A stretch of 64,000 bases of DNA from NCBI GenBank assembly GCA_002450095.1, contig DJYK01000026.1, forward strand, positions 17,781-81,780, written 5' to 3'. The stretch comes from Mageeibacillus sp. UBA6980 (lineage in GTDB: Bacteria > Bacillota > Clostridia > Saccharofermentanales > Saccharofermentanaceae). Within the stretch, counting starts at the first letter, position 1. Each line of letters begins with the position of its first letter. The position numbers and the translations under genes are program-made. Shown piece after piece: positions 528-10,928 of this stretch. The notes under the pieces are model-generated. The model saw only the letters and a list, made by a program, of their open reading frames with translations, searched no databases and had not been told where the DNA came from.

Positions 528-3191
528 ATGTTAACTTGTCCGGCCTGTAATTCTGAGAATGTGTATTTCAGTAAAAAACGCTGTTGTAATATTTGTGAAG
601 ACTGCGGCAAGATATTTCGGGAAGACACAAGACTCAGGTTATTCTTCAGTTATGGTCACGACAAGCATAAAGATCTGGTTGATTTAATACGTAAGCGTCT
701 CGAAGAACGTGGTCACGTTGTATGGATAGATCACAACGATATCGTATTCAATGACGATTGGAGACAGGAAATAACAAGAGGAGTTATCGGTTCCGATGAA
801 ATAATCTCATTTATGTCAAAACATTCCCTACGCGATCCCGGAGTCTGTCTCGATGAAGTTCAAATAGCTATAAGTATAAAGAATGAGCGAGTCATACGAA
901 TCCATCTAGAGGAAACCAAAGAAATCAAACCTTCGACCGCTATATCTTCAAGGCAATACTTGGATATGAAAGATTGGGAAACGTACTATAAGCAGGGCGG
1001 GGAAGTATGGAACGAATGGTTCGATAAAAAGATGTCTGAACTTATTCGATGTATAGAAGATCCTGATAACGCACAATTCGATGGTGAGATAACAGAACTC
1101 TCCCGTAAGTTGCGCCCTATAGACTACTTAACGAGAGCAAGAATACTTTTGAAAGATGAATTCAGAGGCAGAACATGGTTGCTTGATAAGTATAAACAGT
1201 GGAAGAATAGTAGCGATTCCAATATATTCGTGTTATACGGTATACCCGGTGCAGGAAAGAGTGCATTTGCGTCTCGATTGTTTGATGAGGATTATGATGT
1301 TATTGCCTGTGTATTTTTCGAGTTCAGTAGAAAGGATATGTCGGATCTCGATAAAATTACTAATGTTCTAGCCTTTCAGATTGCCTGCAAACTTCCTGAT
1401 TACAGAGAATATCTGCTGTATTGCCTTAATAATGACAGTACTTTTCTTGAACTAGAAGGAATTACACGATTTGATTCTTATATAATAACGCCCCTACGTA
1501 ACTGTATAGTCGGCAGCCGCGACAACCAAATTATCGTTATCGATTCACTTGATGAGGCTTATGACCTTAATAATGAACTTGTAGTTTCGTTGCTCTCAAG
1601 GATAAGACTCTTACCTCGTTGGATAAAGGTCTTGGTTACCAGCAGATACAACAGTGCCATTGACGTATTATTGGACAACGCCGTTAAGACACATATCGAA
1701 AAAGAAACCAAAGATAACGATTCCGACTTAAAGGCTTATCTTTCTGATCACTTTGAAAACTTTCCGAGAATCAATGAACTTGTTTATAAATGTGAAGGCA
1801 GTTTTCTATATGCCTCAATGCTATGTCAGAAGGCAAACCAATCAAATGAATATGCCGAAGAACTACTTGAAACAAACGGAGGTCTTGACTCGTTCTATTA
1901 TCTGGATATTCGGCGGAAGTTTAATTCAGATAGCGGTTTAGATTTTAACAAATATAGACCAATACTCGAATTATTATGCGCCTCTAACGAAATTCCTGAA
2001 TCACTATTATTTCGCATTTTAAGCCTTGATAAGTATGATTATAATTCATTTAAAAACATATTTGCGGATTATATAATCAAAAAAGAATCTTTAGAATATG
2101 ATTTAGATAGGAATAATCAGATAATCAGTTTCTTTCATATGTCGTTCAACGACTGGCTAACTAACCCAGACAGCGCGAACGAGTTCTATATTAACGAACA
2201 AAATGGGGCTACTGTATTAGCCAATTATTTACTCGATAATACCAAGATTAATAACGAGCAAATAAAAGATTATATCGGGGGAAGATATTGGCATGACGGA
2301 GAGCTAATTTCAGTATTGATAAAAGCGGAATTATACAAAGACTGCATAGATATTCTTATTGACAACCCCAATAACAACAGAATGTGGCGTTATGTTAAAC
2401 AATTTCCATCATACATTGATATATCATCTTTAGAAGATACATTTGTTAACAATTGTCGTCACGAACAAATTTATCTAAACAAGATATCAACTGAAGATTT
2501 CATTTATAATTGGTTTCATTTTAGACGTCTTTCTTCCCGATACGAGACTCTATCTCACTTGCTATCAGATGAAAGATTTCTAATAATCCTTATTCAATTA
2601 CTACGCAATGACGATATAGATCCTACAACTTTGGTAGTTATATCACATTTCAAAACGAGTGTACTTCGTGAGATTCTAGGGCTCTATAAAATAGGCCAAA
2701 CACTATCTGATTGTTTAGACCAGTGCGATATACAAGGATATAATATTCCAGATGATATTCGTAAAAAAATCAATCTATTTATTCTTTGTTCCTGCTTTAG
2801 TTATGGTCATCCATCAATAGATTGTATTGAAACTCTAAGGAATGATAAGTTGTATCACAATATTAATGAAATCTGTTCTCTGTCAATTGAAGAGCTGTCT
2901 GTCTATGATATTAGCCAAGATTTAATAATAGCAAGGAACAAATACAACACTTCATGTTTAATAGATTATCTACTAAAACATCTATTTGAATACACCCATA
3001 AAGAACTTAACAACGATAATAAAAACCACATACTCCGTCTTGTTAAATATGGTGCCGAGTTCAATACCGTTATAAACCTTTTTAGAGATTTTGACCGCAG
3101 TAAACTCAAAGACATCATTCTTAATGAAAAGCTGAATTCAATTATTAGTTTGCTTACTCAAATCCAAAATGAACTACCAAATATCAAATGA
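528..3191 (+). CDS. Zn-ribbon - TIR - NACHT/STAND P-loop NTPase (bacterial NLR-like)
   Basis: 887 aa. N-terminal CPAC..CEDC zinc ribbon. TIR-like block RLFFSYGHDKH..WIDHNDI..GVCLDEVQIAI. Walker A YGIPGAGKSAF and Walker B IIVIDSLDEA. Long helical C-terminal region. Confidence 0.8.
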   Translation: MLTCPACNSENVYFSKKRCCNICEDCGKIFREDTRLRLFFSYGHDKHKDLVDLIRKRLEERGHVVWIDHNDIVFNDDWRQEITRGVIGSDEIISFMSKHSLRDPGVCLDEVQIAISIKNERVIRIHLEETKEIKPSTAISSRQYLDMKDWETYYKQGGEVWNEWFDKKMSELIRCIEDPDNAQFDGEITELSRKLRPIDYLTRARILLKDEFRGRTWLLDKYKQWKNSSDSNIFVLYGIPGAGKSAFASRLFDEDYDVIACVFFEFSRKDMSDLDKITNVLAFQIACKLPDYREYLLYCLNNDSTFLELEGITRFDSYIITPLRNCIVGSRDNQIIVIDSLDEAYDLNNELVVSLLSRIRLLPRWIKVLVTSRYNSAIDVLLDNAVKTHIEKETKDNDSDLKAYLSDHFENFPRINELVYKCEGSFLYASMLCQKANQSNEYAEELLETNGGLDSFYYLDIRRKFNSDSGLDFNKYRPILELLCASNEIPESLLFRILSLDKYDYNSFKNIFADYIIKKESLEYDLDRNNQIISFFHMSFNDWLTNPDSANEFYINEQNGATVLANYLLDNTKINNEQIKDYIGGRYWHDGELISVLIKAELYKDCIDILIDNPNNNRMWRYVKQFPSYIDISSLEDTFVNNCRHEQIYLNKISTEDFIYNWFHFRRLSSRYETLSHLLSDERFLIILIQLLRNDDIDPTTLVVISHFKTSVLREILGLYKIGQTLSDCLDQCDIQGYNIPDDIRKKINLFILCSCFSYGHPSIDCIETLRNDKLYHNINEICSLSIEELSVYDISQDLIIARNKYNTSCLIDYLLKHLFEYTHKELNNDNKNHILRLVKYGAEFNTVINLFRDFDRSKLKDIILNEKLNSIISLLTQIQNELPNIK

Positions 3192-3286: not shown

Positions 3287-3595
3287 TTAAACACAGTTGA
3301 AATAAGGTTTAAGGCTGTTCATGAGTTCCTTAATATCGCTGTAATCTACGAAGGCGAGCTCGCCATTTGCAAGGAGCGTTTTCAATGGATGGTCGGCGGC
3401 TAATGGTAAATTGCAGGTGATTCCTTTATCGATGAAGACCTTATACAGAGTATTACATTTCTCAAAGCCTAAACGGCAGCTGGATCTGCTGAAGGAAGAG
3501 GGGAGAGTGCATCGGTAGACTTCGCAGTTTCCTTCTTCAAGAAGATCTTTAAGCATATCGTATTGTTTCTGTGTTCCGTAAACGAATTCTCTCAT
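3287..3595 (-). CDS. Small protein (102 aa), paralog of the N-terminal domain of the adjacent AAA+ ATPase
   Basis: SD AAGGAGGA lies just upstream of the ATG, which is 3 nt after the stop of the JAB-E1 gene. It aligns by eye with residues 1-105 of the 5196..6488 product (RLGFEK/RLGIEK, YKVFID/YTVYIED, GELAFV/GELRFN, LKPYF/LEPLF). Confidence 0.7.
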   Translation of the reverse strand: MREFVYGTQKQYDMLKDLLEEGNCEVYRCTLPSSFSRSSCRLGFEKCNTLYKVFIDKGITCNLPLAADHPLKTLLANGELAFVDYSDIKELMNSLKPYFNCV

Positions 3596-3598
3596 GGG

Positions 3599-5194
3599 TT
3601 AATCCTCCTTAACGTCAATAATACGAGTGTCTTTCCATTTTCCTGCGAGTTTACTGAGATCGTGTATGCAACCGCAGAGCTTGCATTCTTTCTCCGGTGA
3701 CTGTTTGAACCAGATCGGTTCGTCTGTGAATGTATTATCGGATGCTTCCTTGTATATGTTATCGAAGCACTTTATTCCGAGTATACTGTTGATATCAGGG
3801 CTGGTTCTGATCATTACGAAGTTTCTGTCGGCAATCTGGTCAAGCAAATTGTTGTATGGACTGTCGGGAGCATCGTGATAACAAAGCATCATTAGTGCAA
3901 TCTGGCCCTTAAGTGAATTCATTCTTTCTGTAACAAATACAGAGCATTCGGCCGAACCGACATTGTTTTTATAGCCGTTCTCGTAGGCTACAAAACGGGG
4001 AAGGAGAATGCATCTCGGACAGGATTCGGTAACTCCGGGATAAACGAACATCAATTCGCATCCTGCTCCTCGCTCATAAACCATAGCAGCCAGATATGGT
4101 ATACCGAATTTCAAAGCTAAATAAGAACTCCTTTTCTGTGCTTCAAAATTATCAGTACAGCCAAGAATAAGGTAATCCTGAGGGCGCTTCCCCGGGAACA
4201 TATTAAGAAGTGAACCGAACTCTTCATCGCTCATACTGTTGTCCAGGAACCTGTTAACAGTAATTACATTTGCTTTGGGGTTAATGTCCAATATACGGCT
4301 CTTTATAACTTCAGTCTTCTGCTTGCCGATCTCACTTATGAATACTCCCTGAGTGGCAATGTTAGATGCACTGACTATGTCCTTATCCATAATAATATAG
4401 TTATTGAATCCGTGTCGGGCCATGTTCTCGAGGAATGATCTGGCTCCGCCTGCTCCGATGCAGACGATTACTTTGTTCCTGACATTGTCGGGAACCAAAG
4501 TATCAACTTTGCCAAACAGCTCAGTTGAGGTGGGAACTGTTGCCTCTACCGATTCCTTGGCAGGTTCCATCTTTTGCTTGGGCTGCGGATTAGTCTTTTC
4601 GATATACGAATCCACTTCTGAAATAGAATAAGAAGTGTGCCAGGATCTTCTGCCGGAGATAGCATAACCGTCCTTGGTTGCATCAATAATGTATTCCAGA
4701 CAGACGAGAATTCTATCATTAATAGTCCTTACTGTATAGAAGAACATTTTATAGAAACCGTTTTTGGTATTAGACATGAATATCGGCATATAGAAAACAG
4801 ATGAATGAAAGAAGTTCATCAGAATTCGTGCAGTCGAAATGTCGTGAAAAGAGGGTCTTATACATCCGTGAGGATGACTGTGGAAGAACCCCAGAGCTGA
4901 AATATAACCTCTGTCTTTCCAATCCCAATAGACATCGTTCATTGCCTTAGGATCATAATAGAATGTTCCTGCGGTGTTGCAGGAAGAAACATCAAACTCA
5001 GCAAGGTCAATCAGATTGGCGTCGTTGGTACAACCGAGCATACCTCCGGTTTCGGCAGGGTAACGACCTACGTTTGTTCTAAAATAGTCCAATACTTCTT
5101 TGGAAAACTTAACTACCGGGCTCTTGGGTAAATCAGCAGGCGTCTGCATCTTTGCATTTCTTCTATTATTTCTGCGAATTGTATATCTTCTCAT
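3599..5194 (-). CDS. JAB/JAMM (MPN+) metallopeptidase fused to a ThiF/MoeB/E1-like adenylyltransferase
   Basis: JAMM motif HSHPHGCIRPSFHD (HxHx7Sx2D) with an upstream AETGG Glu. C-terminal half has Rossmann VCIGAGGARS, DKDIVSASNIATQ, and the Cys pairs CPRC and CKLCGC as in ThiF/MoeB. ATG at 5194 is preferred over the ORF-track TTG at 5209 because SD GAGGAGG sits at 5201-5207 and the upstream gene stops at 5196-5198. Confidence 0.85.
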   Translation of the reverse strand: MRRYTIRRNNRRNAKMQTPADLPKSPVVKFSKEVLDYFRTNVGRYPAETGGMLGCTNDANLIDLAEFDVSSCNTAGTFYYDPKAMNDVYWDWKDRGYISALGFFHSHPHGCIRPSFHDISTARILMNFFHSSVFYMPIFMSNTKNGFYKMFFYTVRTINDRILVCLEYIIDATKDGYAISGRRSWHTSYSISEVDSYIEKTNPQPKQKMEPAKESVEATVPTSTELFGKVDTLVPDNVRNKVIVCIGAGGARSFLENMARHGFNNYIIMDKDIVSASNIATQGVFISEIGKQKTEVIKSRILDINPKANVITVNRFLDNSMSDEEFGSLLNMFPGKRPQDYLILGCTDNFEAQKRSSYLALKFGIPYLAAMVYERGAGCELMFVYPGVTESCPRCILLPRFVAYENGYKNNVGSAECSVFVTERMNSLKGQIALMMLCYHDAPDSPYNNLLDQIADRNFVMIRTSPDINSILGIKCFDNIYKEASDNTFTDEPIWFKQSPEKECKLCGCIHDLSKLAGKWKDTRIIDVKED

Positions 5195-5195
5195 T

Positions 5196-6488
5196 TTATG
5201 CCTCCTCAATAGTAATTCCGTCTTTGAGGTTTCCTTTTACTGCTACTCTTACGCTTTTTCTTTTGTTCTTCTTAATAACTTCGAAAAGCGATTTGCTCTC
5301 GCTTAAGCATTGCTCAACATTATTTCTTATAGTTCTGGCTCCATAAGCACTGTTGTTCAGATAAACAGTTGTCAGATCAAATATCAGGCGTTCGTCTATA
5401 CGAACCGGAGTAAGGTTATATTTGGTAAGACGATCGACTATGAATTTGTTTACTATGTTCATTATGGCTTCTTCATCAAGCTCATCGAAAATGATATAGT
5501 TGCTTATTCTGCTGCTTATTTCAGGACGGCCGCAGTAACGTGTGAAAGCATCTTTGCACAGTTCACATACTTCGTATCTGTTTCTGGCTGATGAAACACT
5601 TTTTACAGGGATATTCGAAGTGAATACCATTATGCAGCAACGGAGATCTATATCCGGTTTGTTGTTGTTTAAATGCAGGAAGCCCTTGTCAATTGCTTCC
5701 ATCAAAGCTGTTATAAGTGATGTGTGGGCTTTTTCAATTTCATCAAATATAAGCACATGAAAAGGATTGTTTCTTACAGGATCAAGAAGAGTCTTATCCT
5801 CGTAGCCTATATATGACGGCGGAGCGCCAAGAATTGACTGTACAGCATGTTCCTGGACAAATACATTGCAATTTATCCTTATTGTGTCGTAATTTGTACC
5901 GGATGCCTCTGACAGTACTTTTGATAATACTTCTGCACACTGTGTCTTACCGGTTCCGGTAGGTCCCATGAACATCATTGTTGTAGGGTGATCCTGTTCC
6001 AGCCATGTTGAAGAAGCAAGTATTCTTGAGACAGAATCAATCTGACGGTCCTGTCCGAATATCTCTTTCTTCAACGGTATTGCGATATCTTCTGATTCGA
6101 GGATCTTTCGATCCTCGTTAGTTCTGTTGTTAAGCATGTCCTTAACTTCGTTTTTGTTATAAAGCGTTTCTGTCTTCTGCTTGAAAAGAGGTTCAAGACC
6201 GATAAGAAAACTCATCATTTCATCAAATGAATTGAATCTTAATTCTCCGGTAGTGATAAGCTGCATGAACATTCTGTTATCACAGTTAAAGCGGATATTG
6301 TTATCTTCAATATAGACAGTATAGTTGCTGCCGGATTTCTCAATGCCTAATCTGGATGTAGGGGGAACACATCCTTCAGGCAGCTTGCAATTGCTGAACA
6401 GAGACATTCTGTTCATGGATTCAAGCTGAGTCAGTTCGTCTTTGAGCGACATTATATCTTCTATTGTTCCGGCAGCAAATCTATACAT
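5196..6488 (-). CDS. Single-module AAA+ ATPase of the ClpA/ClpB D2 (AAA_2) type with a novel N-terminal domain
   Basis: Walker A FMGPTGTGKTQ, GAPPSYIGYED, Walker B VLIFDEIEKAH, sensor-1 VFTSN, GRPEISSRI, sensor-2 GARTIRN. The N-terminal ~105 aa are paralogous to the 102-aa protein. SD AAAGGAG precedes the ATG. Confidence 0.85.
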   Translation of the reverse strand: MYRFAAGTIEDIMSLKDELTQLESMNRMSLFSNCKLPEGCVPPTSRLGIEKSGSNYTVYIEDNNIRFNCDNRMFMQLITTGELRFNSFDEMMSFLIGLEPLFKQKTETLYNKNEVKDMLNNRTNEDRKILESEDIAIPLKKEIFGQDRQIDSVSRILASSTWLEQDHPTTMMFMGPTGTGKTQCAEVLSKVLSEASGTNYDTIRINCNVFVQEHAVQSILGAPPSYIGYEDKTLLDPVRNNPFHVLIFDEIEKAHTSLITALMEAIDKGFLHLNNNKPDIDLRCCIMVFTSNIPVKSVSSARNRYEVCELCKDAFTRYCGRPEISSRISNYIIFDELDEEAIMNIVNKFIVDRLTKYNLTPVRIDERLIFDLTTVYLNNSAYGARTIRNNVEQCLSESKSLFEVIKKNKRKSVRVAVKGNLKDGITIEEA

Positions 6489-6533
6489 GTTTATTCTCCT
6501 TTACAAGTATTATTGAAGTTGGAATGATTCTGA

Positions 6534-6788
6534 TTACGGCATCGGTTTACGCTGCCCGTCTCCATGAAAGCCTCCGGAGGGCAGCGATTGGCGCTGCTCA
6601 CCTCCGTGGAAGCCTCCGGAGGGCAGCGATTCACGCTGCTCACCTCCGTGGAAGCCTCCGGAAGGCAGCGATTCGCGCTGCTCACCTCCGTGGAAGCCTC
6701 CGGAAGGCAGCGATTCACGCTGCTCACCTCCGTGGAATCCGAGAGAGGGAAGGTGTGTTCTTGTTGTAGTGTTCTGAATGTTTGTCAT
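6534..6788 (-). CDS. 84-aa tandem-repeat peptide (five 14-aa units LPSGGFHGGEQRES), first gene of the operon
   Basis: AAGGAG lies 9 nt upstream of the ATG at 6788, and the stop is 45 nt before the AAA+ gene. The repeat is open in all six frames, so coding status rests on the SD/ATG context and operon position. Confidence 0.55.
   Translation of the reverse strand: MTNIQNTTTRTHLPSLGFHGGEQRESLPSGGFHGGEQRESLPSGGFHGGEQRESLPSGGFHGGEQRQSLPSGGFHGDGQRKPMP
6538..6750. repeat. Head-to-tail 42-bp tandem repeat array (four near-perfect copies at 6567-6734 plus degenerate flanking copies)
   Basis: Copies at 6567-6608, 6609-6650, 6651-6692 and 6693-6734 differ by only a few bases each (unit gaagcctccggagggcagcgattcacgctgctcacctccgtg). 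Diverged partial copies lie on both sides. Confidence 0.95.
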
Positions 6789-7052: not shown

Positions 7053-7649
7053 ATGAGACTTGCAGATAACGGTTCATTAACTCTTGATAATAACTTACAG
7101 GAAGCCTTTATTGAGGACATAGACAGCTTTACATATATATGTCACGGACGTGTTCTTGAGGTTGATCATCATGAGTTGTTTTATTCAAAAAATCACAAGA
7201 TTGCGAACTCCATTTTCAGGGGGGAGCCCTATCAGTATGCTCATCAATCGATAGAATACAGAGTCAGACTCGGTAACCTCTCATATGGACGTTCGACAGA
7301 TTATAGAGATTACAATCTTTTTGGAAACTATCTTGGCATGATTAAGCCCGGAGATGAAGTAAAATTCAGAGTTCGTAAGGGACCTCGAGAGAAGGTTGTT
7401 GCAATTTATAACTGTACGACGGGAAGACAATTAAGACCGTCAATTCAGTTGTCTGCCGGTGTGGTCAGACTGTTTGCGGTTTTGGCCACGGCCTTGTTGG
7501 CCGGAGGCGTGTATGGTGTTTACTACCTGATAACGTCAGGCGTTCTTTGGCATATTTTTATGAAGATCCTTTATGGTCTTATCGGACTGGGCTTAGTCCT
7601 GTGGATCTATGATCTTTTGTTTTTCAGGTTCTTCAGAAAGAGAAAGTGA
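7053..7649 (+). CDS. Membrane protein (soluble N-domain plus C-terminal TM helices), function unknown
   Basis: 198 aa with a strong SD. Hydrophobic stretches VVRLFAVLATALLAGGVYGVYYLI and ILYGLIGLGLVLWIYDLLFF. Confidence 0.6.
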   Translation: MRLADNGSLTLDNNLQEAFIEDIDSFTYICHGRVLEVDHHELFYSKNHKIANSIFRGEPYQYAHQSIEYRVRLGNLSYGRSTDYRDYNLFGNYLGMIKPGDEVKFRVRKGPREKVVAIYNCTTGRQLRPSIQLSAGVVRLFAVLATALLAGGVYGVYYLITSGVLWHIFMKILYGLIGLGLVLWIYDLLFFRFFRKRK

Positions 7650-7652
7650 TCT

Positions 7653-10157
7653 GTGAGGTGGAATATGGACAAGAATACTACTGATTATTTATCTGCAAAG
7701 AGAATTGCTTCCGGGATAGTAAATGTGTCTCAAGGATATGGTCTTGAGACTGTTGCTCCCGGTGATGTTCTTGCTGACAGAATACTTATGCCTGATGTAA
7801 ACAGATGGTACAGGCTCAATCAGATACGAGCCTGTTCTAATAATGAGAATACTCATAATACTTATAAGAATGCAATCAAAAGCACTATGGCATCGGTGTT
7901 AAGACAAAATGAAGATATCGTTTGTTCATATGTGTTTGATGGTGGCGAAGTGTCAGTAATGTATGGAGCAAGAAATGCCGATGTTGGCATGATGCTTGAA
8001 AGTTCTTTGCCTGAATGCAGAATGGAGATGGCAAGTCTTGATATTAATGACAGAACATACAGCTATAACGGAATAATTACCGGTCGTATCAGAGGAGAAG
8101 AGCTGTCGGATAAATTGGTTGCAGCAGGCGTTAACGGCGGATCAGGCTTTGTTGCACTTGTAGCCCAGAGTGTCCCTTTACAACACTTGAATGAAAGAAT
8201 TGAAAATAATAACCGTTTGATTGGTTTCCTTAACCGTTACTCTGTGTCACGTAATACTTATGGTGAGATGAGTAGGTACGAGGAAGAATATGTTGAACAG
8301 GATATTGTTAATGCCGTTGAAATACTGAAGGAAGAGAACGATGTATTGCTTCGTAACAGAGAAGAAGGATTTACATACTCTATAATAAGATTTGGTGCAA
8401 ATGGCATTGATTTATTCAACAGGCTCAAAACAATGCTTTGTTCAGTTAATTCTGCCTCTGTGGACAGAAATACCGGTGTAAGCCATGAACCTGTCAGATG
8501 TATTGAGATCCCCCCGTTTATGCGAATCAGACCGCTGGCTGTACCATACATTAAGTCAGGCGATAATGTTTATATCCCTGATACTATGGTTGCAATTGAT
8601 GAATTGTCAGAAGCATTTATTCCTGCGAGACGGTCTGTATTCGGATATAACTACATTAACTATCATATAGATGAAAACTCTTATGAAGCTTTTCCTACAA
8701 TGCCGTTGTTTGCCGGTAAATCGTTTGAAGTCGGAAAGATAAGCGATTCAAACGGAAAGGCTTTAATTCCTGTAAGTATGATAAATCAGCATGTCTTTGT
8801 TACCGGAAGTACAGGTCAGGGTAAAACGACTACGGTAAAGAAGCTTTTAGCAGAGGCGTGGAAAGAACAGATTCCTTTTATTGTCTTTGAGAGTGCAAAG
8901 AAGGAGTACTTCTCCCTTATTAAAGCAATACCGTCTCTTCGTGTGCTGACATCAGGCCTTGACGGTAACGCTTTGGCAACGGATCCTTTCTGCCCGGAAA
9001 GGGGCATTACTATAGGTGAACATGCTGATGCTTTGGAAAGGGCGATAATGGCAGCTTGTGAAGGCGAACATCCTATCCCCGAAGCTTTGGCGGGTTTGCT
9101 TGAGTATTCATATCGTAAATCCGGATGGGAGTATGATGAGCCGGCTTATGAAGATTTACGAAGACCTTTTCCTACAGCCCGGGAAGTATATGAGAATATC
9201 GACGATTATATACGAGAGAATGCCGGGTATGGTCAGGAAGTGACGGCAAATATCAAAGGAGCTCTCGAGATGAGGATCAGGGTTCTGACCAGCGGATTGG
9301 CAACTCATGTGTTTACCTATAATAATGCAATGACTGCCAGGGAACTGCTATCTGTTCCGACCGTGATTGAGATGGAAGATTACCCCGAGAAACTAAGAGT
9401 GTTCTTGACCAATATCCTTTTGTTTAAGATCAAGTCTTATCTCAAAAAGGTTGCTGAGAGTGATTCATTGAAAAGAATCATAGTAATAGAAGAAGCGCAT
9501 AATATCTTCCGAAAGACAATACATGAAGAATCAACTCAGGCTGCAAATAACAGATATATAGAGAATATGCTCGCAACCGTACGTGCATCCGGTACAGGGA
9601 TAATTATAAGTGATCAGCGTCCGTCATTAATGTCTGACGCAGTTATAGCAAATACTTCCGTGAAAATACTGCATGCTCAAACATCGTCTGAAGATATCAA
9701 TATTGTTGGTCAGAGTATGGGGCTTACAGAGTTTCAGATAAGAAAAGTGAGAGAGCTTCGTAAAGGCGAATGTCTTATTGCATTGACCGGTGTCCACGGA
9801 GTTCAGAGAGCGAAGATTAATATGTTGGAAACAACAGCTGCAATCAATGCTGCGTGCCATATTTGTCATCATCGTTATGACTGTAAACAATCTATGGCTG
9901 CCAGAACAGTCGCATCTATGAATCGGGATTTGTTGAAATACCATGTATCCGGAATCCTCGGTGTGATATATGAACCTGATAGGCTTAAGTCCGGCCTCGA
10001 CAGATTATTCCATGATGTCGGATTATATTGCGGATTGACAGCCTCGTGTTGTGTTTTGGCAGAGATACTGAATGAGTATGCACCTGATCTTTCTTTCGAA
10101 GAGAAGAGGATAATCGTAACTTCATATTACAGGTTTTTATCCCCCCTCAAGAGATGA
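7653..10157 (+). CDS. HerA/FtsK-superfamily (DUF87-like) P-loop ATPase with a large N-terminal extension
   Basis: Walker A VTGSTGQGKTTT, Walker B RIIVIEEAHNIF, then IIISDQRPS. No TM segment. The start is ambiguous (GTG 7653 or ATG 7665). Confidence 0.7.
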   Translation: MRWNMDKNTTDYLSAKRIASGIVNVSQGYGLETVAPGDVLADRILMPDVNRWYRLNQIRACSNNENTHNTYKNAIKSTMASVLRQNEDIVCSYVFDGGEVSVMYGARNADVGMMLESSLPECRMEMASLDINDRTYSYNGIITGRIRGEELSDKLVAAGVNGGSGFVALVAQSVPLQHLNERIENNNRLIGFLNRYSVSRNTYGEMSRYEEEYVEQDIVNAVEILKEENDVLLRNREEGFTYSIIRFGANGIDLFNRLKTMLCSVNSASVDRNTGVSHEPVRCIEIPPFMRIRPLAVPYIKSGDNVYIPDTMVAIDELSEAFIPARRSVFGYNYINYHIDENSYEAFPTMPLFAGKSFEVGKISDSNGKALIPVSMINQHVFVTGSTGQGKTTTVKKLLAEAWKEQIPFIVFESAKKEYFSLIKAIPSLRVLTSGLDGNALATDPFCPERGITIGEHADALERAIMAACEGEHPIPEALAGLLEYSYRKSGWEYDEPAYEDLRRPFPTAREVYENIDDYIRENAGYGQEVTANIKGALEMRIRVLTSGLATHVFTYNNAMTARELLSVPTVIEMEDYPEKLRVFLTNILLFKIKSYLKKVAESDSLKRIIVIEEAHNIFRKTIHEESTQAANNRYIENMLATVRASGTGIIISDQRPSLMSDAVIANTSVKILHAQTSSEDINIVGQSMGLTEFQIRKVRELRKGECLIALTGVHGVQRAKINMLETTAAINAACHICHHRYDCKQSMAARTVASMNRDLLKYHVSGILGVIYEPDRLKSGLDRLFHDVGLYCGLTASCCVLAEILNEYAPDLSFEEKRIIVTSYYRFLSPLKR

Positions 10158-10197: not shown

Positions 10198-10422
10198 ATG
10201 GCAGAAGTATTAGGACCAATTGTTTGTGTTGTATATGCTTGTATAGCTGTTGGGTTGATAACCGGTACAGACGATTCGTTTAAGTGCAAAGTTATCGGAA
10301 TCTGTTTCGCTGTAGCTGCGATTCCTCTGGTGGTTTTTATGGACGTCGTGATTAAAGTTCTCGGCGTGTTAATTGTAATAGCAGCGATTTTAATATTTAT
10401 CTACTGCCTGTTAGGAGTGTGA
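10198..10422 (+). CDS. Small two-TM membrane protein
   Basis: 74 aa, almost entirely hydrophobic. SD AAGGAGGAAGG upstream. Confidence 0.6.
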   Translation: MAEVLGPIVCVVYACIAVGLITGTDDSFKCKVIGICFAVAAIPLVVFMDVVIKVLGVLIVIAAILIFIYCLLGV

Positions 10423-10928
10423 CTGTTATGGATAAGACTATCTATTCTGTTTTTCTTGTAGTTGTAATAGTCGGAGCTTGTGTAATTAAGCTTGTGTATC
10501 TTAATTGTAAGGAACGCAAGGCTCAGCAACAGCGAAATAGGAACAATAACAATAGCAGCAATATTAACAGTAACAGGAATAGTGTAAGCCGCCCGATAAT
10601 ACAGGAAAGTACACCTGTTGCCCGTGCAAATATTAGTAATAATTATGTTTATTATTTTGCAAACGGCAGAGGCCCTCTTGAAGACAGGACGTTTTGTTTC
10701 AGTTACGAGAAAGTTGGTGAATCCTGGCGTGCTTATATAGTAAAAATGCCTTCCTTGAGATCTCGTGATGCGTCATTCGCGTTGACCCACAGATTGAGAG
10801 CGGATGACGGCAGGACGTATGTCTGCTGGGACAGTCCGATACATAATCTGAAGGATATGCAGAATGTATCTAAGATGTGGGCTGACTGTATTTGTGAGTA
10901 CATCAAGACAGGAAAGAGATTCGGATGA
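10419..10928 (+). CDS. Single-pass membrane protein with an Asn-rich linker, function unknown
   Basis: N-terminal TM YSVFLVVVIVGACVIKLVYL, then QQQRNRNNNNSSNINSNRN, then a globular C-domain. Overlaps the upstream stop. The start could be ATG 10428. Confidence 0.5.
   Translation: MTVMDKTIYSVFLVVVIVGACVIKLVYLNCKERKAQQQRNRNNNNSSNINSNRNSVSRPIIQESTPVARANISNNYVYYFANGRGPLEDRTFCFSYEKVGESWRAYIVKMPSLRSRDASFALTHRLRADDGRTYVCWDSPIHNLKDMQNVSKMWADCICEYIKTGKRFG

Follow-up and report, generated by a model that had tools for sequence, protein, structure and literature searches.

Two Copies of a Small Domain, One Free and One on a ClpB-Type ATPase, with a Probable Minimal E2-Like Enzyme in a Probable, Undescribed Ubiquitin-Style System of Mageeibacillus sp. 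UBA6980

Introduction

Bacterial systems built from E1, E2 and JAB proteins (CBASS Cap2/Cap3, Bil and Bub) are an active field of research, and none of those described has an unfoldase or a dedicated module linking conjugation to unfolding. Here we describe a small domain, named N-dom, from a 64,000-nucleotide stretch of Mageeibacillus sp. UBA6980 (GenBank assembly GCA_002450095.1, contig DJYK01000026.1, positions 17,781 to 81,780 of the forward strand; this whole stretch is called the window). N-dom occurs there as a free protein of 102 amino acids (aa) and again as the N-terminus of an AAA+ ATPase, in one operon with a JAB-E1 fusion and a gene for a tandem short peptide. The window probably encodes an undescribed ubiquitin-style system in which N-dom couples tagging enzymes to an unfolding motor, and no paper describing such a system was found.

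Among published systems, Type I Bub (6E.1) comes nearest. Its operons encode BubAB, a fusion of a ubiquitin-like protein (Ubl) with an E2, BubCD, a JAB-E1 fusion, and BubE, and the JAB cuts the Ubl-E2 protein (Ye et al., 2024, bioRxiv 10.1101/2024.11.21.623953). The window and its related loci likewise have a JAB fused to a ThiF-type E1 and a small protein with an E2 fold, which in some loci carries a domain of about 100 aa at its N-terminus; a chain of the Bub complex is among the best fold matches of this E2-like protein, and a defence context is likely for both systems. In contrast to Bub, the E2-like protein is here fused to N-dom, which lacks a beta-grasp fold and has no Gly at its terminus or junction, and no Pfam match to DUF6527/BubE was found in the seven window genes scanned. 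An AAA+ protein of ClpB-D2 type bearing the same N-dom is obligatory here, together with the tandem short-peptide gene, and an invariant Cys is retained in the E2-like protein, whereas Bub operates via oxyesters.

The cyclic-oligonucleotide-based antiphage signaling systems (CBASS), with Cap2/Cap3 in Type II and the E2-only CdnG-E2 form (PDB 8hsb and 8yjy), share with this locus an E1/E2/JAB logic that does without a beta-grasp modifier. A CBASS E2 is the best fold match of the E2-like protein, and the E1 part matches the PADLOC models of CBASS E1-E2 proteins (1.5e-11). The locus differs from CBASS in that it has no CD-NTase and no cyclic-nucleotide effector, its E2 and E1 are separate with the JAB fused to the E1, and CBASS offers no counterpart to its AAA+ unfoldase and peptide gene.

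N-dom resembles the effector-associated domains (EADs) of NTPase-centred conflict systems in that one small domain is borne by the NTPase and by a second component of the locus, and also by unrelated partners such as TIR (Kaur, Burroughs, Iyer and Aravind, 2020, PMC7159879). N-dom differs from them in being predicted as alpha/beta rather than Death-like and in occurring in single-copy cassettes, and a homotypic contact is putative here. The AAA+ module also matches the models of Dodola DolB and of the PADLOC candidate PDC-M37B (E ~2e-21); these matches cover the ATPase part only (from about residue 103), whereas N-dom, the E2-like protein and JAB-E1 are foreign to both, and DolA was not seen here. 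A further parallel lies in the unfoldases. The N-domains of Clp/Hsp100 unfoldases choose substrates and adaptors, and these and related modules (Clp_N with ClpS, the Mpa coiled coil with Pup, the Cdc48 N-domain with its cofactors) share with the N-dom-AAA+ protein a flexibly linked N-terminal non-ATPase domain on a ring unfoldase with an intact pore loop, and plausibly the selection of partners or tagged substrates. The differences are that N-dom has no sequence or fold match to Clp_N, that a paralogue of it is attached to a conjugating enzyme, and that no protease partner was seen.

Materials and Methods

An N-dom hidden Markov model (HMM) independent of the window was built from 24 stand-alone homologues from other samples and zero window sequences, and was run against the 1031 window frames of at least 30 aa. 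Family members were collected by a profile search of 1.84 billion cluster representatives. Smith-Waterman scores were compared with those of 2000 shuffles. Structures were predicted with AlphaFold2 (AF2), for N-dom from a 20-sequence alignment, and graded by the predicted local distance difference test (pLDDT) and the predicted template modeling score (pTM); models were compared with known folds by Foldseek and VIA. The locus set comprised eight genome loci (L001-L008) and 17 loci from a metagenome scan seeded with fusions of N-dom to the E2-like domain, and N-dom placement was compared in 23 loci. Evolutionary rates were compared as mean pairwise identity among five complete loci, and co-variation was assessed in seven loci, with partial Mantel tests of 5040 permutations.

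Results

Judged by sequence comparison, the 102-aa protein (P0001) and the N-terminus of the AAA+ protein (P0002) are homologous, paralogous copies of one domain, and chance resemblance is ruled out. A sequence-only reading of this DNA had noticed that the two align over their full length, and both open reading frames are as it gave them, the AAA+ protein of 430 aa occupying 5196-6488 on the minus strand. In BLASTP, residues 1-99 of P0001 aligned with residues 1-102 of P0002 at 28% identity (34.3 bits, E 3e-7), and the blocks it had listed (M.xF..GT, LKD.L, RLG[FI]EK, Y.V[FY]I, GEL.F and L.P[YL]F) are all visible in that alignment. The Smith-Waterman score was 87 against 26.4 ± 4.9 for the shuffles (maximum 58; z = 12.4). 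Positions 1-99 of the independent HMM matched residues 1-102 of the AAA+ protein (E 1.5e-15), the sole other window match being P0001 itself, and residues 5-107 of the AAA+ frame matched the N-dom HMM at E 1.8e-29. The same pairing of a free N-dom with an N-dom-AAA+ protein was found in the eight independent genome loci and in one more genome of the same order. The possibility of gene conversion between P0001 and the AAA+ N-dom was rejected, as the free copy is 37.1% identical to its own AAA+ N-dom and 36.1% to foreign ones; the copies thus show no within-locus co-variation.

N-dom has no entry in the Pfam, NCBIfam or PADLOC libraries, and the ESM Atlas gave no usable match. The profile search collected about 213 proteins at E <= 1e-3, 72 of them at E <= 1e-10, and in almost all of these 213 representatives the match begins at residue 1. 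The domain was found free (about 100 aa), in front of a ClpB-D2-type AAA+ module, in front of the E2-like domain of about 100 aa (called WRAYI), in front of a different AAA module, with DUF697-like or Zn-ribbon tails, and in a TIR-TPR-N-dom protein. The combination with the ClpB-D2-type AAA+ module is much the most frequent long form, accounting for 44 of 149 among the matches listed and for nearly all of 117 longer relatives. Among the rarer forms, P0140 (261 aa) has N-dom C-terminal to TIR-TPR and ends exactly at the conserved ...A-S-A-Y, P0117, P0127 and P0141 (356-373 aa) have it before an AAA_16/NACHT-like P-loop domain with a ClpB-type lid, and P0142 (144 aa), possibly a chimeric call, has it before a fragment with a GGPPCQ cytosine-methylase-like motif.

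Both N-dom classes conserve M1, F4, G7, an L-P turn, R-x-G-F-E, I-D-x-G, G78, F82 and a terminal L-x-x-L-[YF], and the motifs F4, G7, LP, R-x-G-F-E, I-D-x-G and G-x-x-x-F are retained in very distant lineages. In about half of the free copies the conserved aromatic residue (...L-x-x-L-Y) is the very last one, the rest extend 1-5 residues beyond it, and none has a terminal Gly; the window copy ends in ...YFNCV, as had been read from the sequence. A Zn site (C-H-x4-C-x5-C with I-T-C), which occurs in many free copies, is missing in both window copies and in the L007 AAA+ copy, and was rejected as a general feature.

The AF2 model of N-dom (pLDDT 91.4, pTM 0.80) is compact and alpha/beta, with a four-stranded sheet and the order helix 9-20, three strands, helix 70-77, strand, and helices 85-94 and 96-99. 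The C-terminal L-x-x-L-[YF] is helical (residues 96-99; pLDDT about 86 for residues 91-100). The model is neither a beta-grasp (b-b-a-b-b) nor an all-alpha bundle of Death type, so the Death-domain-like character earlier ascribed to the domain does not agree with it. Foldseek against the PDB and a search of the BFVD viral library both gave nothing at E <= 1e-3. The best VIA match was YkuJ (2ffg_B, Z 5.2, root-mean-square deviation 3.3 over 70 residues), followed by chains of Csm1, PUR and Whirly proteins at about Z 3.5, and no Ubl was among the fold matches listed. On the AAA+ protein, N-dom resembles Clp_N in position, being N-terminal and attached by a linker to a Clp-type AAA+ module. Residues 1-105 have no Pfam match, hence none to Clp_N (PF02861), and the N-dom model is alpha/beta rather than a helical double repeat.

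The free copy is associated in its gene clusters with a protein of E2-like fold. In the window, this protein has an N-terminal transmembrane (TM) helix, a low-complexity linker and then the E2-like domain, with the invariant His and Cys in place and a C-terminus reading ...YIKTGKRFG (coordinates in Table 1). The AF2 model of the WRAYI domain (pLDDT 87.7) was best matched by 8hsb_B, the E2 of the CdnG-E2 CBASS complex (Z 6.8, root-mean-square deviation 2.9, 94 of 104 residues), then by 8yjy_B (Z 6.7), the Cap2 E2 domain 7to3_A (Z 5.0) and chain 9eav_D of the BubCD-BubB-BubA complex (Z 4.9), with many eukaryotic E2 (UBE2S/T/L3), UEV and RWD chains ranked lower. The His of T-H-R and, 12 residues on, the Cys of Y-[VI]-C-W are invariant in 20 sequences and recall the HPN...Cys of E2 enzymes. 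From these models, the WRAYI domain is a probable minimal E2-like enzyme. A relationship of N-dom itself to the E2-like domain was considered as well; hhalign gave a probability of 0.8%, and the two are treated as unrelated.

Searched with the WRAYI profile, L001-L008 proved to encode this domain in TM-anchored form, as their small membrane proteins. Such TM-E2-like proteins, with an E2-like domain of about 95 aa, end nearly invariantly in ...EYIATGKRFG (...YIxxGxRF in other lineages). In some second E2-like copies the invariant Cys is replaced by Asp (Y-L-D-W, Y-V-D-W: L018:2677-3000 vs L018:3367-3681; L012:7744-8091), which is reminiscent, by analogy, of inactive UEV-type E2 partners.

Every locus with enough contig contains E2-like, JAB-E1 and N-dom-AAA+ genes, and a tandem-peptide gene is present in every related lineage; the core cassette is therefore tandem peptide, E2-like protein, JAB-E1 and N-dom-AAA+. 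Wherever the N-terminus of the AAA+ protein is on the contig, it bears N-dom. The second N-dom copy takes one of three forms. It is free and directly upstream of the TM-E2-like genes in L001-L008, and free too in the window, where the E2-like gene stands in the other operon; it is fused before the E2-like domain through a low-complexity linker of 15-60 residues in L011-L015, which have extra free E2-like copies; and it is absent in L016, L018-L023 and L026, where only the AAA+ copy exists. Altogether, 14 loci have N-dom on the AAA+ protein plus a free or E2-like-fused copy. In L018-L026 the WRAYI domain is free (about 100 aa) beside JAB-E1 and N-dom-AAA+. Thus the 102-aa protein holds the slot of the N-dom-E2-like fusion, and it is plausible that it is the split form of that fusion because the E2-like protein of these loci has an N-terminal membrane anchor.

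L012 is an expanded locus (L012:1063-8091) with, in order, JAB-E1, N-dom-AAA+, a second JAB protein lacking a recognizable E1 domain (4222-5571), two intact N-dom-E2-like fusions, a free E2-like gene and a broken N-dom and E2-like pair; it also has two peptide genes, and looks like a case of paralogue diversification.

The two N-dom copies evolve at very different rates. Mean pairwise identity was 56% for the free N-dom, 56% for the E2-like protein, 52% for JAB and 64% for E1, compared with 35% for the AAA+ N-dom and 55% for the AAA+ core. The free copy therefore changes about as fast as the enzymes and the E2-like protein, and the AAA+ copy is much faster than its own ATPase core; in L007 it has none of the cysteines kept in other copies. 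Pairwise identities of the free N-dom track those of the E2-like protein (r 0.89), and this held when E1 was taken into account (partial Mantel r 0.72, p 0.0085), whereas the corresponding value for JAB given E1 was r 0.09 (p 0.34). The free N-dom is tied to the E2-like enzyme because the two are fused in five loci, strictly adjacent in eight and co-varying. The link of the domain to JAB-E1, which the sequence-only reading had proposed, is accordingly replaced by one to the minimal E2-like protein.

The peptide genes encode 1.5 to at least 13 units with the shared core P-x-G-x-F-[HRN]-G (Table 1). Many precursors stop exactly after ...G-x-F-H, and from this pattern the mature peptide may have the C-terminus F-H instead of G-G. 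With these properties, the tandem-peptide precursor is a better candidate than N-dom for the natural JAB/E1 substrate.

The window genes form two operons. Four co-directional minus-strand genes (3287-6788) encode the tandem peptide, the AAA+ protein, JAB-E1 and the 102-aa protein, and the E2-like gene lies on the plus strand downstream of a HerA-like gene. L001-L008 (from Lachnospiraceae and relatives) keep the gene order of the window operon and continue with one or two of the small membrane proteins, a membrane/OB-like protein and a HerA-like ATPase. The window module at 7053-10157 is 37-40% identical to the counterparts in these loci (37% over 840 aa); it is co-directional after the E2-like genes in L003, L005, L006 and L008 and divergent in the window. 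As the window too has an E2-like gene, placed behind the HerA-like one, its two divergent operons belong together as one system.

This genome has N-dom twice, both copies in this operon, and no others. Among 301 genomes of the order, 2 carried it, this one included, compared with 0 of 99 other species of the genus and 0 of 400 sampled genomes of the phylum. The patchy distribution and the neighborhood, which includes further candidate defence genes, fit a mobile accessory system of defence type, which may act against phage.

Discussion

Considering the ties of N-dom to the E2 arm, the single-copy cassettes, in which the domain works on the unfoldase without a second copy, and the precedent of Clp N-domains, our tentative reading, to which we give a probability of about 40%, is that N-dom serves as a docking module, itself non-catalytic, by which the E2 arm is connected with the unfoldase. 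As a partner-selecting N-domain of the unfoldase, N-dom would bind the E2-like enzyme, its peptide-charged form or the peptide itself. The free 102-aa protein would be the copy of the E2 arm, serving the membrane-anchored E2-like enzyme as a soluble adaptor; the second copy may have become free in the window and in the Lachnospiraceae-type loci because the E2-like protein acquired its N-terminal membrane anchor. Tagging chemistry and ATP-driven unfolding would thereby be placed together. The E2-like protein is presumed in this scheme to be catalytically active, and the peptide to be the species activated.

Several points weigh against this reading. N-dom has no confident structural relative and no fold could be assigned to it, so its ligand cannot be read from the fold, and the proposed binding is putative. 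In a complex prediction whose chains included the 102-aa protein as partner, alongside AAA+ residues 1-105, the peptide and the E2-like domain, the median score was 0.49, compared with 0.59 for the control in which the AAA+ N-dom was replaced; this outcome is used neither for nor against binding. The E2-like domain has no E2 match by sequence in Pfam (all 20 members), PADLOC or a PDB sequence profile, and its assignment is made at fold level with a top Z under the tool's comfort line of 8. The co-variation comes from a small sample of seven related loci, and a recombination block of two adjacent genes could mimic it. One conserved ligand predicts like constraint on both copies, yet the AAA+ copy evolves far faster. 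Finally, the long low-complexity linkers between N-dom and the E2-like domain fit tethering but are no proof of contact.

Of the alternatives, the least unlikely, though still doubtful, is the one that the sequence-only reading listed first: a homotypic adaptor, in which the free or E2-fused N-dom would pair with that of the unfoldase in the style of Death domains and so bring the E2 arm, or what it produces, to the AAA+ ring. The presence of N-dom on both arms of the system, and on a TIR-TPR protein and other ATPases like an effector-associated adaptor domain (Kaur et al., 2020, PMC7159879), speaks for it, and the adaptor idea stands insofar as the domain is portable, being free, on the NTPase, fused to the E2-like protein, on a second AAA type, on TIR-TPR and with a Zn ribbon. 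Strict homotypy as a general function does not stand, as the many cassettes with the AAA+ copy only require the domain to work unpaired, the free copy resembles the AAA+ N-dom of its own locus no more than that of others, the two copies differ greatly in rate, and the fold is not Death-like. It is unlikely, slightly more so than such pairing, that N-dom is the receptor for a ubiquitin-free tag and reads a P-x-G-x-F-H peptide cut out and attached by JAB-E1 and the minimal E2. If this were true, the E2 copy would allow processive tagging and six copies on a ClpB-like ring would draw proteins bearing the tag into the unfoldase, giving a bacterial and archaeal counterpart of Pup-Mpa or ubiquitin-Cdc48 with a new reader fold and a tag of 12-14 residues. 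Decidedly unlikely, in turn, is a shared recognition of invader or cellular targets by which N-dom would lend one specificity to both the unfoldase and the E2-like enzyme. The system showed no E3-like gene, the AAA+ N-dom is fast relative to the ATPase core, L012 has tandem, diverging N-dom-E2-like paralogues, and Bil E2s have been proposed to pick their targets directly (bioRxiv 10.1101/2024.11.21.623953), all of which would suit such a role; the free copy is, however, as conserved as the enzymes, and motifs kept in very distant lineages suggest a conserved ligand within the system.

A regulatory role, with the free copy as a decoy or competitor for the unfoldase N-domain, or with N-dom as an acceptor modified by the E2-like enzyme and switching the unfoldase on or off, appears very unlikely. 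Free paralogues of an enzyme's N-terminal module are often competitive regulators, and the strict N-terminal position with the conserved M-[RK]-x-F start would suit alpha-amino modification. Against this, no lysine is invariant across both N-dom classes, the position and co-variation of the free copy point to the E2-like protein, and the free copy is dispensable in minimal cassettes; a decoy, as already suggested from the sequence, should moreover follow the fast AAA+ copy, and the free copy, conserved like the enzymes, does not. The most improbable of the readings weighed here makes N-dom the modifier itself, a counterpart of BubA that JAB would cut from the E2-like or AAA+ fusion, or trim in its free form, for activation of the new C-terminus by E1. 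This has the architecture of Type I Bub in its favor, in which the JAB part of a JAB-E1 protein cuts a fused Ubl and E2, and the C-termini of the free copies, ending at the conserved aromatic or a few residues beyond, are like those of Ubl precursors. The proposal that N-dom is the E1 substrate nevertheless fares poorly, given a fold that is not a beta-grasp, no Gly at or near the C-terminus, an L-x-x-L-[YF] that lies in a confidently predicted helix rather than a flexible tail, and the universal tandem-peptide precursor, often ending in ...G-x-F-H, as the more natural substrate.

New in this study are the N-dom family, with its members in distant lineages, its two homes on a ClpB-type ATPase and a previously unrecognized minimal E2-like enzyme, and the joining of two apparently separate window operons into one system. 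If N-dom is the coupling device of the docking-module reading, the system could offer a simple prokaryotic model of how tagging is handed to an AAA+ motor.

Other Features of the Locus

The features of the window and the peptide genes of related loci are listed in Table 1. The single AAA+ module carries a Walker A motif GPTGTGKT, a Walker B motif DEIEKA and a pore-loop-like GAPPSYIGYE.

Table 1. Features of the window and tandem-peptide genes of related loci (coordinates without a locus name refer to the window).
Feature	Position	Strand	Basis or remark
TIR-NACHT (NPHP3_N-type) gene	528-3191	+	convergent with the minus-strand operon
Free N-dom copy (P0001), 102 aa	3287-3595	-	last gene of minus-strand operon; AF2, BLASTP and profile
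JAB fused to ThiF-type E1, 536 aa	3599-5209	-	Prok-JAB 49-131, ThiF 241-406; JAMM motif HSHPx6SxxD
Linker and single ClpB/ClpA-D2-type AAA+ module	5196-6179	-	AAA_2 5.7e-26; ClpA/ClpB D2 region
N-dom copy, residues 1-103 of AAA+ (P0002)	6180-6488	-	BLASTP and HMM matches
Tandem-peptide precursor, units LPSGGFHGGEQRES x5	6534-6788	-	first gene of minus-strand operon
Membrane/OB-like protein	7053-7649	+	homologue in L001-L008
HerA/FtsK-like ATPase	7653-10157	+	homologue in related loci
74-aa polytopic membrane protein	10198-10422	+	between HerA-like and E2-like genes; translation only; membership in the system uncertain
Membrane-anchored E2-like protein	10419-10928	+	HMM E 1.4e-29 and fold matches
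E2-like domain	10626-10925	+	
Invariant His of E2-like domain	10788-10790	+	
Invariant Cys of E2-like domain	10824-10826	+	
Peptide genes, L012	373-753, 8259-8945		units VPGTFHGGEQTT
Peptide gene, L016	3602-3871		divergent units YGNFRG / YGNLKF
Peptide gene, L018	1801-2271		units IPPGTFHGEDE
Peptide gene, L019	3550-3726		units LIPIGVFRGGDEVPPGTFR
Peptide gene, L021	7661-7870		units LLPVGIFNGGREGQELPSGVFC, shared by L021-L026
Peptide gene, L027	3-197		units IPAGTFHGEEDS

The stop codon of the TIR-NACHT gene is 96 bases from the end of the gene for the 102-aa protein, and its product is probably a separate defence protein of the same island. In a distant locus of high-GC type, a fragment of a HerA-like ATPase (L018:1-1551) was found upstream of the cassette, and the HerA module may therefore be linked to the system beyond the Lachnospiraceae-type loci.

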